Shown: piece by piece, positions 6,210 through 34,459 of the stretch
How positions within the stretch are numbered: position 1 is the first letter of the stretch
Layout: every line of letters starts with the position of its first letter
Assembly (NCBI RefSeq): GCF_011045215.1
Contig: NZ_CP049202.1
Strand: one strand, 5' to 3'
Length of the DNA stretch: 64,000 bases
From: Escherichia coli
GTDB taxonomy: Bacteria > Pseudomonadota > Gammaproteobacteria > Enterobacterales > Enterobacteriaceae
Notes under the pieces: generated by a model
Database searches by the model: none
Told to the model about the DNA's origin: nothing
The model's input: the letters and a program-made list of their open reading frames with translations, nothing else
Translations under genes and position numbers: made by a program

Positions 6210-7781
6210 TTACTGAGAGCTCAGATCAACTTTCCAGGGCAACAGATCGCGTACCCGGTTTGCCGGCCAGTCCTGGATATGTTCAATGACGTAACGCAGC
6301 CACTTTTCTGGCTCCACATTGTTCAGACGGCATGTGCCGATCAGCGAGTACAACACCGCCGCATGTTCACCACCGCTGTCGGAACCCGCGAACATCCAGT
6401 TTTTCCGGCCTACGGCCACTCCCCGTAAGGCGTTCTCTGCGATGTTGTTGTCGATTTCCACCCAGCCATTACTGCAGTACACGTTCAGTGCATCCCACTG
6501 TTTCAGCAGGTATGCGAACGCTTTTGCCGTATCTGAGTGACGCGACAGTGTTTTCATCTGTTGCTGTATCCAGTCATACAGTGACTGCATCAGTGGCGCG
6601 GCTCTGGCTTTTCTTGCCGCCAGACGCTGTTCTGCTGAACAGCCCCGGACCTCTGCCTCGATGGCATACAGTTCACCGATACGCTGCAGGGCTTCCGTGG
6701 TGATGTAGGTGGGCGCTCTTGCATGCACATCGTGGATTTTTCTCCGGGCATGAGCCATACACGCGGCTTCCGTTATTCTGCCGGATTCGTATAACGCCCG
6801 GTAACCACCGTAAGCATCGGCCTGAAGCACACCGCTGTAACCGGCCAGGTGATTTTGTGGATGGATACCTTTCCGGTCCGGACTGTACGCGAACCAGACC
6901 GCCGGGGGCATCTGTGAACCGGCGTTACGGTCATCACGGACGTAGACCCACAGCCGGGCTGTCCGGGTTTTACCGCTGCCCGGCTCCTGGACCGGGACGG
7001 GGATATCATCGGCATGGAATTTACCGGGCATCAGCACATACTGGCGCAGTACGTCATACAGCGGCTCCAGCAGTTCAGCAACAGCACCTGTCCAGCGCCC
7101 CAGTGTGGCACGGCTCAGCTCCACTCCCTGACGACGGTATATTTCTGACTGGCGGTATAACGGCAGATGGTCTGCATATTTCCCGGTGACAACATGGGCC
7201 AGAAGCCCCGCTCCGGCATAACTGCGTGCAATGGGTTTTGAAGGTACTGGTGCCTGCACGATATGGTCGCACCGGCAACAGGCCTGTTTCGGACGTTGTG
7301 TTTCGATAACCTTAAAGGCGCTGCTGATAAGCTCCAGTTGCTCTGACACATCACATCCCAGAGAACTGAGTTCACCACCACAGGCAGGACAGCATTCCTC
7401 TTCCGGCCGGATAACCCGGGTTTCACGGGGAAGTGAGGCCGGTAACGGTTTACGGGCTGAAGACTGGCGCAGGGCGGATGGCAGTACCGGGTCATATTGC
7501 TCACCCAGCGTTTCCGCCATTTCTTCCTGAAGTGCGCTGATTCGCTCCTGTGCTTCCTGTATCTGCCGTTCGGTTTTTGCACGAAGTTTTTCTGAGCTTT
7601 TACCGAACTGCATACGTTGCAGTTTCGCAACCAGCGCCTTCAGCCGGTTGATTTCGGAAGCATAAGCCGCCACCCGCTGTGAGAGCAGGCGGTTGTATTC
7701 AGCCATCTGGCGGATGGTGTCCTGTTGCGTCTGCAACAGTGCCCGCAGGCGGGCGTTCTCATGAGCAAGTGAGGTGTCCAT
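6210..7781 (-). CDS. tnpC: IS66-family transposase TnpC
   Basis: 523 aa, colinear with the copy 1 TnpC ([12 protein letters not shown]-terminal LPWK). Confidence 0.9.
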
Positions 7782-7800
7782 ATCCTCACTTTACAACGGG

Positions 7801-8148
7801 TTATATGCGGATTCCAGCGCGTTCCGTTCGTTTCGGGTGCTTCCAGTTGATACCTTCAAGAAGCATGGATAACTGAGCCGGAGTAAGGTGCACCTTGCCG
7901 TCACGGGTGACTGGCCAGACGAAGCGGCCCCGCTCCAGGCGTTTGGTGAAGAGGCACAGTCCGTCACTGTCAGCCCACAACACTTTTATCTGGTCACCCC
8001 GGCGTCCGCGGAAGATGAACAGGTGTCCGGAGAACGGGGCATCCTTCAGGACGTTCTGAACTTTTGATGCCAGGCCGTTAAAGCCATTTCGCATATCGGT
8101 GATACCTGCAACCAGCCAGATACGCGAACCTGCAGGGAGAGATATCAT
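7801..8148 (-). CDS. tnpB: IS66-family TnpB (Orf2)
   Basis: 115 aa, WLVAGITDMR...LFIFRGRRGD. Confidence 0.9.
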   Translation of the reverse strand: MISLPAGSRIWLVAGITDMRNGFNGLASKVQNVLKDAPFSGHLFIFRGRRGDQIKVLWADSDGLCLFTKRLERGRFVWPVTRDGKVHLTPAQLSMLLEGINWKHPKRTERAGIRI

Positions 8149-8825
8149 CAGTGGCTGCTCCCTTTTATTTCGCGGATAAGTGTCTGTAATAACGCCGGCG
8201 TCAGTTTACCTTTAAGCCTGAGAGTTCCGGCCGGCAGAACCAGCTCACAACACAGACTGTCGGACGGTGTATTTATCTGCTCTGGTTCCTGTGCGGGGGC
8301 CGGGATTTTATTATCCGGCTCCGGCGTTAACGTCACGGGAAGCAGTGCCGGCATATTTTTTCCGGAAGGCAGCAGGCCACCTTTCCGGTATTGATGGCGC
8401 CAGTTGAAGAGCAGGTTATCGTTGATTCCGTTTTCCCGGGCGATCTGCGCCACACAGGCTCCGGGCTGCAGTGACTGCTCCACTAAGGCGATTTTAAACT
8501 CATAAGGGAAGTTGGGCCGCCGGGGACGTTTTTTTACCACGGGGGCTTCGGATATAACGGTGCTTTCAGGACGTACGACTGGTACCGTGGAAAATTGTCC
8601 GTAAAGGCAGGCATCAAGTTCCTGCTCCGACATGCCTGCGGGCAAAGGCCACGAAAGGCCAGCTCTCCGAAAGCGCACGAACATACTACAAACTGTTGAT
8701 TTTGGTACACCCAGGCGACGCCCGGCCACAACCCGGGGTAAATGTTCTTCAAAGTGAAGACGTAAAGCTTCAGTGATCCAGGTCCGGTGTTTCATACGAT
8801 AGTGTCCATTAAAAATGATGGACAT
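8148..8825 (-). CDS. tnpA: IS66-family TnpA (Orf1); true start probably internal
   Basis: C-terminal half matches IS66 Orf1 (GACVAQIARENGINDN); ORF-track N-terminal extension of about 80 aa is uncertain. Confidence 0.65.
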   Translation of the reverse strand: MSIIFNGHYRMKHRTWITEALRLHFEEHLPRVVAGRRLGVPKSTVCSMFVRFRRAGLSWPLPAGMSEQELDACLYGQFSTVPVVRPESTVISEAPVVKKRPRRPNFPYEFKIALVEQSLQPGACVAQIARENGINDNLLFNWRHQYRKGGLLPSGKNMPALLPVTLTPEPDNKIPAPAQEPEQINTPSDSLCCELVLPAGTLRLKGKLTPALLQTLIREIKGSSH

Positions 8826-33031: not shown

Positions 33032-33769
33032 TTAAGAAACTCTGCTTCTTTGATAAAGCTGGCTGATTATACTTACAACAGCTATACTTTTAGTTTTCTC
33101 CAAAAACTCTTCAGGCACAAATTTTTCTGAACTAAGTTCATTTTGGAGTAATGTAACAATCCTTGCTGTTTTATCTGCATATTTTTGCCATTCATTTTTT
33201 AATTCCTTAACACTCTCCTTACGCAATTCAATATCTGCATTAAGTTCGTTAACTGTCATTTTCAAAATTGATATGCTTCTCTCCAGTTGCTCATACTCAG
33301 ATTTAAGCAAAGCAGTATTAAGTTTTTCACGTTTTGCTATCTCTTCCTGCATCACCAGTTTTGTATCCTGGACAGATTGAGCTAACTTCTCAGCATTTAT
33401 CGCTTCCACTTTTTTATCTGCCGTTTCCTTCTGCATCTCATATTCAGCTATCAATGACTTTTTAAATCCTTCACGCTCCTTTGCTTCTAAATATCGTTTT
33501 GTCCATGCAATCCCATAATTTAAATATGGTGATATGACGGACAGAAAAATGCCTACTGTGACAGGAGCTACTAAATACAACCAATAGAACTTTTCAGCAC
33601 TTGTGATTTGCTCTATACGGGTAGTCACTGATGATTTACTCATAAACAGGATAGCCAGGTTTTGCCAGTTAAAGCCACACCATGAAAGGGTTATGTATCC
33701 CCATAATGGCTTTTTCAGACGCTCCTTAACAACGTCGTTTACAGAATCTGTGATTGACTCATTATTCAT
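33032..33769 (-). CDS. hypothetical membrane protein: two N-terminal transmembrane helices plus long coiled-coil
   Basis: ATG 33769 with GGGGGA Shine-Dalgarno; hydrophobic segments near residues 22-45 and 60-82; E/K/L-rich heptad region; about 33 percent GC. Confidence 0.6.
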   Translation of the reverse strand: MNNESITDSVNDVVKERLKKPLWGYITLSWCGFNWQNLAILFMSKSSVTTRIEQITSAEKFYWLYLVAPVTVGIFLSVISPYLNYGIAWTKRYLEAKEREGFKKSLIAEYEMQKETADKKVEAINAEKLAQSVQDTKLVMQEEIAKREKLNTALLKSEYEQLERSISILKMTVNELNADIELRKESVKELKNEWQKYADKTARIVTLLQNELSSEKFVPEEFLEKTKSIAVVSIISQLYQRSRVS

Positions 33770-33846
33770 TTAGAAATCCCCCTTTAACTTTGTCTCTATC
33801 ACTTACAGGAAAAGAGCCGTCGGAAAGAAAACTGCTGATTGAGATA

Positions 33847-34140
33847 TTATTTCATTCGCTCACTGGCAATATTATAAACGTTACACCGCTCTCGTTTCCC
33901 TACAGCAATCACCCATATAACAATTTCTTCATCAATGACCTTATAAATAAGCCTAAACCCAGATGCTCTCAGTTTTATTTTAAAACATCCAGCTAGATCA
34001 CCATGAAGCCTGGCAGCACCAGTGTAAGGATTATGCTGTAGTTTTCTGAGTTTCTTTTTAAACTGGTCACGTATTGTCTTGTCCAGCTTATTCCACTCTT
34101 TAAGGGCCCTTTCGTCAAAGTCGATATTAAAGGTCATCAA
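33847..34140 (-). CDS. relE: RelE-family toxin
   Basis: 97 aa; ...FDERALKEWNKLDKTIRDQFKKKL...CFKIKLRASGFRLIYKVIDEEIVIWVIAVGKRER close to E. coli RelE as recalled. Confidence 0.8.
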   Translation of the reverse strand: MMTFNIDFDERALKEWNKLDKTIRDQFKKKLRKLQHNPYTGAARLHGDLAGCFKIKLRASGFRLIYKVIDEEIVIWVIAVGKRERCNVYNIASERMK

Positions 34141-34381
34141 TATTCACCCTGATGCGTCTGGCAGGATTTTTCAGTCGTTCTCTGACAATATTCAGAATAT
34201 CTTCGTCCTCATCATTATCACTGACAACAACAGACACTTCATTGAAAGGGAGTTTTTCATTTTCAGCGACATAACGGAGAAAAAGGCGGAGAGCTTCTGA
34301 AGGTGAAAGATTGAGCTTTTCGAAGACCTGCCAGGCATTTTTCTTCAGTTCTTCATCGACACGAATTTGAACAGTACTCAT
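34127..34381 (-). CDS. relB: RelB-family antitoxin
   Basis: Start ATG 34381 with GGAG Shine-Dalgarno; MSTVQIRVDEELKKNAWQVFEKLNLSPSEALRLFL...; overlaps relE start. Confidence 0.75.
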   Translation of the reverse strand: MSTVQIRVDEELKKNAWQVFEKLNLSPSEALRLFLRYVAENEKLPFNEVSVVVSDNDEDEDILNIVRERLKNPARRIRVNIDDL

Positions 34382-34459
34382 GATAATACTCCGGTAATAA
34401 AGTATGCAGGCAGTATATACGTGAACAGATGTAATGACAAATGTATTGACATGTGACCT

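Follow-up and report, generated by a model that had tools for sequence, protein, structure and literature searches.

A gene at positions 33032–33769 (minus strand) of Escherichia coli contig NZ_CP049202.1 was analyzed within a stretch of 64,000 nt, the whole of which is called the window here. The gene is real, intact, and under purifying selection, and its 245-aa product belongs to a widespread, unnamed family of membrane-anchored coiled-coil proteins that travel as cargo of temperate phages, prophage remnants, phage-plasmids, and plasmids. Judged from sequence and surroundings, the family is a good candidate for a new membrane-anchored exclusion protein. An anti-phage role of this kind, by exclusion or abortive infection, is put forward tentatively, with a likelihood that falls a little short of even. 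This reading draws on a conserved N-terminal membrane module joined to a fast-diversifying stalk and tip, on the positions that relatives occupy in temperate phages, and on the known defense genes found beside some of them.

Coding Evidence

The gene and its ribosome-binding site are placed as follows.

33032–33769, minus strand: coding sequence of 245 aa with an ATG start, taken from the list of open reading frames (ORFs) and backed by substitution rates, 590 homologous clusters, and PHROG matches

33777–33784, minus strand: Shine-Dalgarno sequence AAGGGGGA, read from the sequence 7 nt before the ATG, inside the 24 nt upstream that are still homologous to chromosomal relatives

On the minus strand, the region upstream of the gene reads AGTTAAAGGGGGATTTCTAA-ATG and contains a strong Shine-Dalgarno sequence. 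The GC content of the gene is 35.9%, compared with 49.5% for the window and 47.8% for the adjoining insertion sequence (IS) and Tn3 DNA. Arithmetic from base composition gives a stop about every 14 codons, and an open frame of 245 codons would arise by chance with a probability of ~2e-8 per start, or ~0.003 expected over the whole window. The ratio of nonsynonymous to synonymous substitution rates (dN/dS) is 0.24 against an E. coli chromosomal relative (83% nucleotide and 77% protein identity) and 0.25 against a Citrobacter relative, which identifies the gene as protein-coding and under purifying selection. The initial annotation, made from the letters alone, had described a well-supported gene of 245 aa with a strong Shine-Dalgarno sequence and about 33 percent GC; the gene model is borne out, and the GC figure is corrected to the measured value.

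A Widespread Family without a Name

Relatives were collected by an exhaustive phmmer search over 1.84 billion cluster representatives (clusters at 50% identity). The search retrieved 590 family clusters at E ≤ 1e-3, of which 68 reach E ≤ 1e-10; total lengths are ~200–390 aa. The C-termini of the relatives differ and run longer, and some distant members end in winged-helix-like sequence. Five PHROG families match, all of function unknown, the best being phrog_4780 (2e-14), followed by phrog_13369 (1e-12). Foldseek against AFDB50 returned 37 structural relatives, chiefly from Enterobacterales and also from Vibrio, Shewanella, Idiomarina, and several Bacteroidota; all are labeled "Uncharacterized protein" except for one "predicted membrane protein" and one winged-helix DNA-binding protein. 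A scan of species-representative genomes with a narrow search pattern yielded three loci. The gene had been called an orphan, a description that holds locally: its DNA is absent from all 72,556 PLSDB plasmid records, 7 of 5,426 complete E. coli genomes contain copies of ~83% identity, and a 99%-identical protein is present on only two other contigs. It does not hold for the protein, given a family of 590 clusters.

Searches for a known domain or function returned only coiled-coil signal. Pfam gave coiled-coil noise alone for the protein and 82 relatives, among which no enzymatic or toxin domain was recognizable, and NCBIfam gave nothing above cut-off for the protein. PADLOC-DB v2 includes profiles for Abi families, PD-T4/T7/Lambda, Zorya, Kiwa, CBASS effectors, and other systems; its best match (PDC-M21B, E = 0.0011) is limited to coiled-coil residues 135–224 and the rest are SMC-like coiled coils; seven relatives produced the same noise and no real system match. 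A sequence-profile search of the PDB found coiled coils only, Foldseek found nothing significant in the PDB or BFVD, and a domain-fusion search with the N-terminal module alone retrieved only fragments. No paper on the family was found in the literature by accession number and key terms. These searches uphold the initial impression that the gene is unlike any recognized housekeeping plasmid function. Homology to a characterized structural protein, the counterevidence named at that stage, was not found in Pfam, NCBIfam, PADLOC, PDB sequences, or by Foldseek in the PDB and BFVD.

Protein Architecture

An AlphaFold2 model was built on the 82 relatives, with a mean predicted local distance difference test (pLDDT) score of 92.1. 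Its helices comprise residues 3–19; residues 21–33 and 35–43, which form one segment with a kink at N34/W35; residues 48–56; a single continuous helix at residues 61–213; and residues 219–244. The parts of the protein map to the DNA as follows.

33707–33769, minus strand: residues 1–21, predicted N-terminal cytoplasmic amphipathic helix, in which R17 is invariant and P21 nearly so across the 82-sequence alignment

33641–33706, minus strand: residues 22–43, first hydrophobic, aromatic-rich segment LWGYITLSWCGFNWQNLAILFM, the probable first hairpin arm

33590–33640, minus strand: residues 44–60, short loop with helix 48–56 and the V48/R51/I52 motif, predicted from charges to be periplasmic

33521–33589, minus strand: residues 61–83, transmembrane helix 2 (Kyte-Doolittle and AlphaFold2), which runs on into the stalk; P69 is invariant, and G73 and P81-Y82 are conserved

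33131–33520, minus strand: residues 84–213, predicted cytoplasmic α-helical stalk, pLDDT 94–98

33140–33328, minus strand: residues 148–210, canonical dimer-type coiled-coil segment of the stalk, from the heptad register

33038–33115, minus strand: residues 219–244, C-terminal helix (tip), pLDDT 70–77, the most variable part of the family

The strongest conservation falls in the N-terminal module. Residues R17, W35, and P69 are invariant in the alignment, P21, N34, and P81 occur in at least 90% of the sequences, and closer relatives keep V48, R51, and I52 without exception or nearly so. Family-wide conservation peaks in the first hydrophobic segment, which bears the FNW motif, at 2.56 bits per column; the stalk reaches 1.1–1.3 bits and the tip 0.97 bits.

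Segment 61–79 is a clear transmembrane helix, with a Kyte-Doolittle value of 1.98. The first segment (residues 25–43) is weakly hydrophobic; it has many Trp, Tyr, and Phe residues and includes N34, Q36, and N37, and because its Kyte-Doolittle value is just 0.88, we infer rather than observe that it spans the membrane. Among the 82 relatives, the final 20 residues of the N-terminal region contain on average 3.35 Lys and Arg residues, the 16-residue loop 2.24, and the stretch directly after the second helix 3.27; the two flanks summed exceed the loop in all 82. By the positive-inside rule, this distribution predicts a hairpin with both ends cytoplasmic (N-in/C-in) and the short loop periplasmic. 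A two-arm membrane hairpin in the N-terminal module is thus likely. The double-pass anchor of the initial annotation is supported by its second helix and by the charges, and stays uncertain in its marginal first arm.

The stalk is ~19 nm long (130 residues at 0.15 nm each), carries zero net charge, and is rich in Glu, Lys, and Leu (20, 18, and 15, respectively, of the 124 residues at 90–213). Clean heptads are confined to approximately residues 148–210, where beta-branched residues tend to fill position a (Y159, I166, V173, I180, V187) and Leu fills position d (L155, L162, L169, L176, L190). This pattern is typical of parallel dimers and suggests such an arrangement here. Elsewhere the stalk is an amphipathic helix with a period of 3.6. 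The extended E/K/L-rich coiled coil described earlier therefore stands as a continuous helix in the model, with canonical coiled-coil character in the 148–210 segment only.

Cargo Positions in Temperate Phages

In Klebsiella phage BUCT711 (Uetakevirus) and Escherichia phage EC.W1-9, the gene lies alone on the opposite strand between those for the large terminase and the portal. A homologue in the lambdoid phage KO-TP1 lies antisense between the replication genes and ninB (nin region); the holin, endolysin, and spanin of this phage are located elsewhere, with an Rz-like spanin in a lysis cassette 4 kb from the homologue. Orientation was counted in the 34 IMG/VR viral loci that include both flanks: the gene runs antisense to the two neighbors in 23, antisense to the upstream one only in 3, and co-oriented with both in 8. 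The epsilon15-like terminase-portal slot accounts for 15 of the 23 antisense loci.

Chromosomes and plasmids carry the gene in related settings. A 4.6-kb islet between tonB and yciI in E. coli (locus L001) consists of a large serine recombinase gene, a 1.1-kb ORF-free spacer, a small serine recombinase gene, and the homologue. In the chromosomal relatives, the small serine recombinase gene is convergent with the homologue and overlaps its stop by 4 bp. The islet also exists in larger E. coli and Citrobacter versions that include genes for tape-measure and Dit-like tail proteins, and further members at prophage ends adjoin tyrosine integrases. On a non-mobilizable 94-kb E. coli plasmid with phage tail genes (L056), the homologue closes an antisense islet (HigB-HigA-helix-turn-helix-homologue) inside the tail genes, and on a Pantoea plasmid it lies antisense between ArdA/methylase and umuDC. 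Pfam families among 118 neighbors from 17 further loci include integrase, resolvase, CI/S24 repressors, RecT, RusA, and N, which are typical of temperate-phage immunity and early regions. The family gene is absent from most related phages and plasmids. By this gene order, the viral and prophage positions are apparent lysogen-expressed "moron" or cargo slots of temperate phages.

Several further features of these loci were recorded. The spacer is AT-rich, 1.1–1.3 kb long, and contains no ORF of at least 50 aa (L001, 10251–11413; L008, 9307–10536; L012, 9355–10707); it lies between the small serine recombinase gene and the rest of the yciI/tonB-integrated element, in a position conserved in E. 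coli and Citrobacter. Rfam scans of this spacer and of gene junctions gave nothing credible, and the spacer may contain regulatory sites, serve as an att or recombination substrate, or encode an RNA of a new type. The integrative element itself is ~11 kb long in L012 and L013 (E. coli, yciI-tonB) and in L008–L011 (Citrobacter), with a large serine recombinase gene at the E. coli boundary and the tape-measure and Dit-like genes; the stretch examined showed no genes for capsid, terminase, or replication. The element may represent a prophage in decay or resemble a satellite, and L001 holds its reduced version of 4.6 kb. Tandem paralogues with different C-terminal parts occur in Citrobacter (L008–L011, 6813–7673 and 8001–8738, 286 and 245 aa) and in L035 (5950–6849 and 8341–9093). 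The homologue of E. coli J31 (L002, 11988–12725) is split by a frameshift into two ORFs annotated as "Atg14 domain-containing protein" and "hypothetical protein"; the split shows that family copies do decay, and the Atg14 name is a coiled-coil artifact.

Evolutionary Tempo

Divergence was compared at the epsilon15-like terminase-portal slot as the median identity over 66 pairs from 12 loci. The portal and terminase retain 77% and 80% identity, compared with 33.5% for the whole family protein. Within that protein, the first 100 residues have a median identity of 54.5% and the remainder 22.7%, and the proteins encoded in the slot are 201–358 aa long. In six E. coli chromosomes, the DNA match to the gene covers its N-terminal-coding half only. 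A conserved module joined to a fast-diversifying one at a fixed locus is the pattern expected for a gene in conflict with other phages.

Defense Genes beside Family Members

In L058–L060, a zinc-ribbon and DUF4145 protein matching PD-T7-4 (E ~1e-13) is encoded so that its gene ends 1–11 nt before the start of the homologue. PD-T7-4 is RAZR, a validated abortive-infection HEPN RNase that works as a single gene (PMC13017515), and DUF4145 is a HEPN family (PMC3710099). In L019 and L064, AbiTii is encoded 83–89 nt upstream in the same orientation, and in L064 it is preceded by a large serine recombinase gene. Other loci feature a full-length PD-Lambda-4_A (score 2020), convergent and 300 nt downstream of a family member (L020); a methyl-directed restriction enzyme (1e-25) between the two paralogues of L035; and a DrmD-like protein (2e-11) in L036. 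The helix-turn-helix gene upstream of the homologue on the L056 plasmid matches the N-terminus of PD-Lambda-2_B (2e-43). Among the 118 neighbors, AbiTii and SIR2_2 each occur twice. Contig L006 has a 99%-identical allele, placed behind relB-relE as in the window, with Abi_2 and DpnII/MboI-domain genes ~5–6 kb away (6387–8241). Overall, known defense genes stand beside family members in ~8 of 37 non-redundant contexts, a frequency that is well above the level for random genes, though not a formal genome-wide score.

The AbiTii-domain proteins of L019 (869–1840) and L064 (2945–3841) possess a Gly/Ala-rich hydrophobic C-terminal tail (…GKAFTGALKVAGAAAPAVLTNAIC…), which suggests that these neighbors are also membrane-associated. 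The Abi_2 gene of L006 is of the AbiD/F HEPN type, and the corresponding region of the window is the ISKra4-family element, so the two plasmids differ by rearrangement. Two assignments were dropped. The 286-aa protein encoded upstream of the homologue in Citrobacter is no HEPN partner but another paralogue of the family (the HEPN_Swt1 hint, E = 0.22, is noise), and the phage-plasmid homologue, which has no PADLOC match, is not the C-terminal part of PD-Lambda-2_B.

The Plasmid Locus and Its History

The window is from an IncF-type conjugative plasmid (traI, traX, finO, repA). The gene lies between Tn3 debris and relBE/repA, outside the tra region, in a mosaic of IS2, IS110, ISKra4-family, and Tn3 fragments. 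Its neighbors are listed below.

29804–32666: ISKra4-family element with 29-nt inverted repeats (93% complementary), inserted in a Tn3-family transposase remnant

32656–32909, plus strand: 3′ remnant of the Tn3-family transposase (ORF 32656–32877; from its translation, and PF01526 on the equivalent L006 ORF) and its terminal repeat (32872–32909, outer end at 32909)

32992–33029: second Tn3-family terminal inverted repeat, outer end GGGGTTCTGCGCC (minus strand) at 33029, two bases past the stop of the gene

33794–33846, minus strand: junction of 53 nt from the end of homology to the relE stop, lacking a promoter or terminator consensus

33847–34381, minus strand: relE (33847–34137) and relB (34127–34381), 93–94% identical to annotated RelE/ParE and RelB/DinJ genes on IncF plasmids, with Pfam RelB and ParE_toxin on L006

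The placement between a Tn3 remnant and relBE given in the initial annotation is accurate: the transposase remnant at 32656–32877 and two Tn3-type termini lie on one side, and relE and relB on the other. Homology to the chromosomal module spans 33030, in the region of the stop codon, to 33793. The stop codon itself is conserved, and only 24 nt of native upstream sequence is left, ribosome-binding site included. The 121-bp terminal Tn3-family fragment at 32910–33030 is 100% identical to Tn3-annotated DNA on other plasmids. The gene came as a trimmed cassette, and the Tn3-family end replaced the serine recombinase gene that overlaps the stop in relatives. The window's own 190-aa serine recombinase was considered as the usual partner and dropped, as it is 32% identical to that partner and lies inside the ISKra4-family element.

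The gene is located 77 nt behind relE on the same strand. A promoter-like site upstream of relB (34412–34440, 10 of 12 matches) is the only one nearby on the minus strand, and a promoter and terminator scan found neither a sigma-70-like site nor a terminator between relE and the gene. This arrangement implies read-through, and the gene is probably transcribed from the relBE promoter. The same relBE arrangement accompanies the 99%-identical protein on the two other contigs, and relBE is common among PLSDB plasmids at 93–94% identity.

Additional observations concern the surroundings. The two Tn3-family terminal repeats have the same orientation, lie 120 bp apart, and share GGGGTTCT(A/G)CGCC at their outer ends; they derive from insertions of Tn3-family elements, nested or successive, of which the opposite ends were not located. 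The ISKra4-family element encodes a PRiA4_ORF3-like protein (202 aa), the resolvase-like serine recombinase (190 aa, 30625–31197), and a transposase (467 aa). In two unrelated replicons, a family gene immediately follows a same-strand toxin-antitoxin pair of the RelE/ParE superfamily, namely relBE in the window and higBA in L056 (3611–4323); this proximity may be coincidence or the borrowing of an autoregulated promoter. Farther away, the window contains a PefC/AfrB-type fimbrial usher gene (808 aa, above the NCBIfam cut-off) with a PefA-like major subunit gene at 19231–22353, followed by IS2 and IS110 copies and an AraC-family regulator gene (27396–28241).

Proposed Function and Alternatives

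In the tentatively favored reading, the resident element would express the protein to exclude superinfecting phages, as a sensor-effector of the abortive-infection type. The variable cytoplasmic stalk and tip would recognize a phage product, the signal would travel along the coiled coil to the conserved membrane module, and this module would perturb the inner membrane and halt the infection. As the variable part is predicted to be cytoplasmic, recognition would occur inside the cell after entry rather than by an entry block. Transmembrane proteins in known defense systems are regarded as suicide effectors (PMC9122126). This specific sensor-stalk-membrane mechanism is rather doubtful in its particulars. 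The broader proposal is possible, if still doubtful: a new self-contained single-gene anti-phage family, present in no current domain or defense database and housed in dedicated cargo slots in Gammaproteobacteria and Bacteroidota, in which a dimeric inner-membrane protein would sense through its hypervariable stalk and tip and execute through an R17/N34-W35/P69 module. The likeness to single-gene abortive-infection or exclusion proteins seen in the initial annotation has gained support from context (moron slots, defense neighbors, and fast divergence) and none from homology to a named family.

A number of points weigh against an anti-phage role. No family member has a known phenotype, and none shows homology to a validated defense protein, the PADLOC matches being coiled-coil noise at E ≥ 0.001. 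The neighbor evidence comes from ~8 of 37 contexts and is not a genome-wide defense score; prophage cargo slots also hold non-defense genes; and in the window no defense gene is adjacent apart from relBE. The hairpin topology is a prediction, given the marginal first segment, and a dimer would contribute only four membrane helices, a poor pore unless higher oligomers form. Moreover, the native promoter is lost, and expression on the plasmid is presumed.

Among the alternatives, superinfection exclusion at entry would have the conserved membrane module and periplasmic loop block genome injection by occupying or altering a host component or the ejection conduit. P22 SieA and T4 Imm block phage genome injection at the inner membrane, and the predicted inner-membrane location, the conserved V48/R51/I52 loop predicted to face the periplasm, and cargo positions like those of classical lysogen-expressed exclusion genes would all suit such a role. 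However, what is found is a fast-evolving part in the cytoplasm and a conserved membrane and periplasmic part, and a phage-specific entry block predicts the reverse. An entry block also leaves the 19-nm cytoplasmic stalk without an obvious role, and the protein shows no similarity to SieA and lacks its FxRYPxEAxxFNK motif, so that we regard an entry block as unlikely. A two-gene system is a further option, with the family protein as the membrane partner of an upstream HEPN-type protein (RAZR-like DUF4145 or AbiTii) and the plasmid copy partnerless and inactive or re-purposed. The 1–11-nt spacing in L058–L060 and the same-strand AbiTii genes 83–89 nt upstream in two loci point this way, and two papers mention a HEPN-TM system on phage-inducible islands (PMC12948488, PMC11087260). 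Yet most members are solitary (in the epsilon15-like slot, at prophage ends, and in the E. coli islet L001), and RAZR functions as a single gene (PMC13017515). The upstream genes also belong to unrelated types, a sign of cargo placed side by side more than of a single obligate system, and a HEPN partnership is accordingly judged quite unlikely.

A non-defense role for the element itself, as a membrane tether or scaffold that anchors DNA or a phage or plasmid protein, or as a modulator of cell division or lysis timing, would suit the anchor-stalk-tip design. It would also fit the winged-helix DNA-binding annotation of one AFDB relative, the winged-helix-like ends of some distant members, and the lack of an enzymatic or toxin domain in the 82 relatives. 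Against it, the gene runs opposite to the late and early operons instead of belonging to them, is missing from most related phages and plasmids, diverges much faster than structural genes, and lies outside lysis cassettes, as in KO-TP1 with its separate holin, endolysin, and spanin; such a role is improbable. Finally, the plasmid copy could be a silent passenger, a promoter-less leftover of Tn3/IS-driven rearrangements that is not meaningfully expressed and awaits decay. The 24 nt of native upstream sequence, the missing promoter consensus behind relE, the mosaic of IS2, IS110, ISKra4-family, and Tn3 fragments, and the frameshift-split L002 copy are in keeping with this fate. It is nonetheless very unlikely in view of the intact ORF with its strong ribosome-binding site, the position 77 nt behind relE on the same strand with no intervening terminator, and the same arrangement with a 99%-identical protein on two other contigs.

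Significance

If the exclusion reading is correct, a common and previously unrecognized family of exclusion proteins is carried by prophages, phage-plasmids, and conjugative plasmids of Enterobacteria, and a one-protein design of "sensor on a stalk, effector in the membrane" joins the defense repertoire. The family would then help to explain differences in phage host range among strains with epsilon15-like prophages or such plasmids. Specificity would also become tractable to study, since the alleles found naturally at a single phage locus have a common membrane module and different tips. The plasmid locus further illustrates that a resistance- or virulence-type IncF plasmid can acquire phage-derived cargo behind a toxin-antitoxin promoter. 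Should the inference fail, the gene is one further conserved hypothetical cargo gene.

Comparison with Known Systems

Three known types of membrane protein were compared and rejected. Channels in which a transmembrane helix continues into a coiled-coil stalk (pore-only NavAb, MthK, CorA type) share the order helix, short helix, helix, and cytoplasmic coiled coil. Pore domains of this type make up 9 of 24 weak Foldseek PDB matches, all of them insignificant (E ≥ 2.2, probability ≤ 0.2). The family differs in its 17-residue loop, too short for a selectivity filter, and in heptads that suggest a dimer rather than a tetramer or pentamer; with no significant fold match, a tetrameric 2TM/P-loop cation channel was rejected. 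An i-spanin (Rz-like) has a single N-terminal transmembrane helix and a periplasmic coiled coil and is encoded in a lysis cassette with holin, endolysin, and o-spanin. The protein has no spanin PHROG match, its charges place the coiled coil in the cytoplasm, and KO-TP1 encodes a separate Rz-like spanin. Conjugative entry or surface exclusion (TraS, TraT, Eex) was rejected since there is no Pfam or NCBIfam match, the gene lies outside the tra region, and most relatives are found in phages.

The remaining systems are closer in general design. A HEPN-TM system of phage-inducible chromosomal islands was reportedly described by Fillol-Salom and colleagues in 2022, and some relatives are likewise directly preceded by HEPN-type genes (DUF4145/RAZR-like or AbiTii). 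In contrast, the window gene is without a HEPN partner, having relE/relB upstream and a Tn3 end downstream, and most family members are solitary. Two-transmembrane abortive effectors (RexB; CBASS, retron, and Thoeris types) resemble the family in their small membrane module, the presumed executor, and in their carriage by mobile elements. They respond to a sensor protein of another chain or to a nucleotide signal, whereas the family protein would join sensor and effector in one chain. RexB itself spans the membrane with four helices and is paired with RexA; an hhalign comparison with lambda RexB aligned 2 columns (probability 0.3%), and neither a Rex match in PADLOC nor a RexA-like neighbor in the window was found.

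P22 SieA, like the family protein as read here, is an inner-membrane protein from a prophage cargo gene that excludes superinfecting phages; it has 162–164 aa, three or four transmembrane segments (three predicted), and a conserved FxRYPxEAxxFNK motif near its C-terminus, and acts on injection (PMC10883804). SieA has no coiled coil, and the family protein differs in its 245 aa, its 150-residue helix, its one clear and one marginal hydrophobic segment, and the absence of the motif.

SieB of lambda and P22 (PF14163) is an abortive exclusion protein. It is shorter (183 aa), with a globular C-terminal part in place of the family's 150-residue helix; neither the protein nor its 82 relatives match PF14163, and aligning the family profile with lambda SieB in hhalign yields a 2% probability. 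The likeness lies in layout and location. The lambda sequence features two N-terminal hydrophobic segments, a basic stretch, and a cytoplasmic C-terminal part, as does the family protein. SieB is encoded by a small single gene antisense within the lambda leftward early operon, and the family gene is antisense in 23 of 34 viral loci and in KO-TP1. Both are carried by temperate phages, and some relatives are found in lambdoid early regions near CI, N, RecT, and RusA. SieB of lambda and P22 is thus the closest analogue of the family in design and genomic habit, by resemblance and not by membership.

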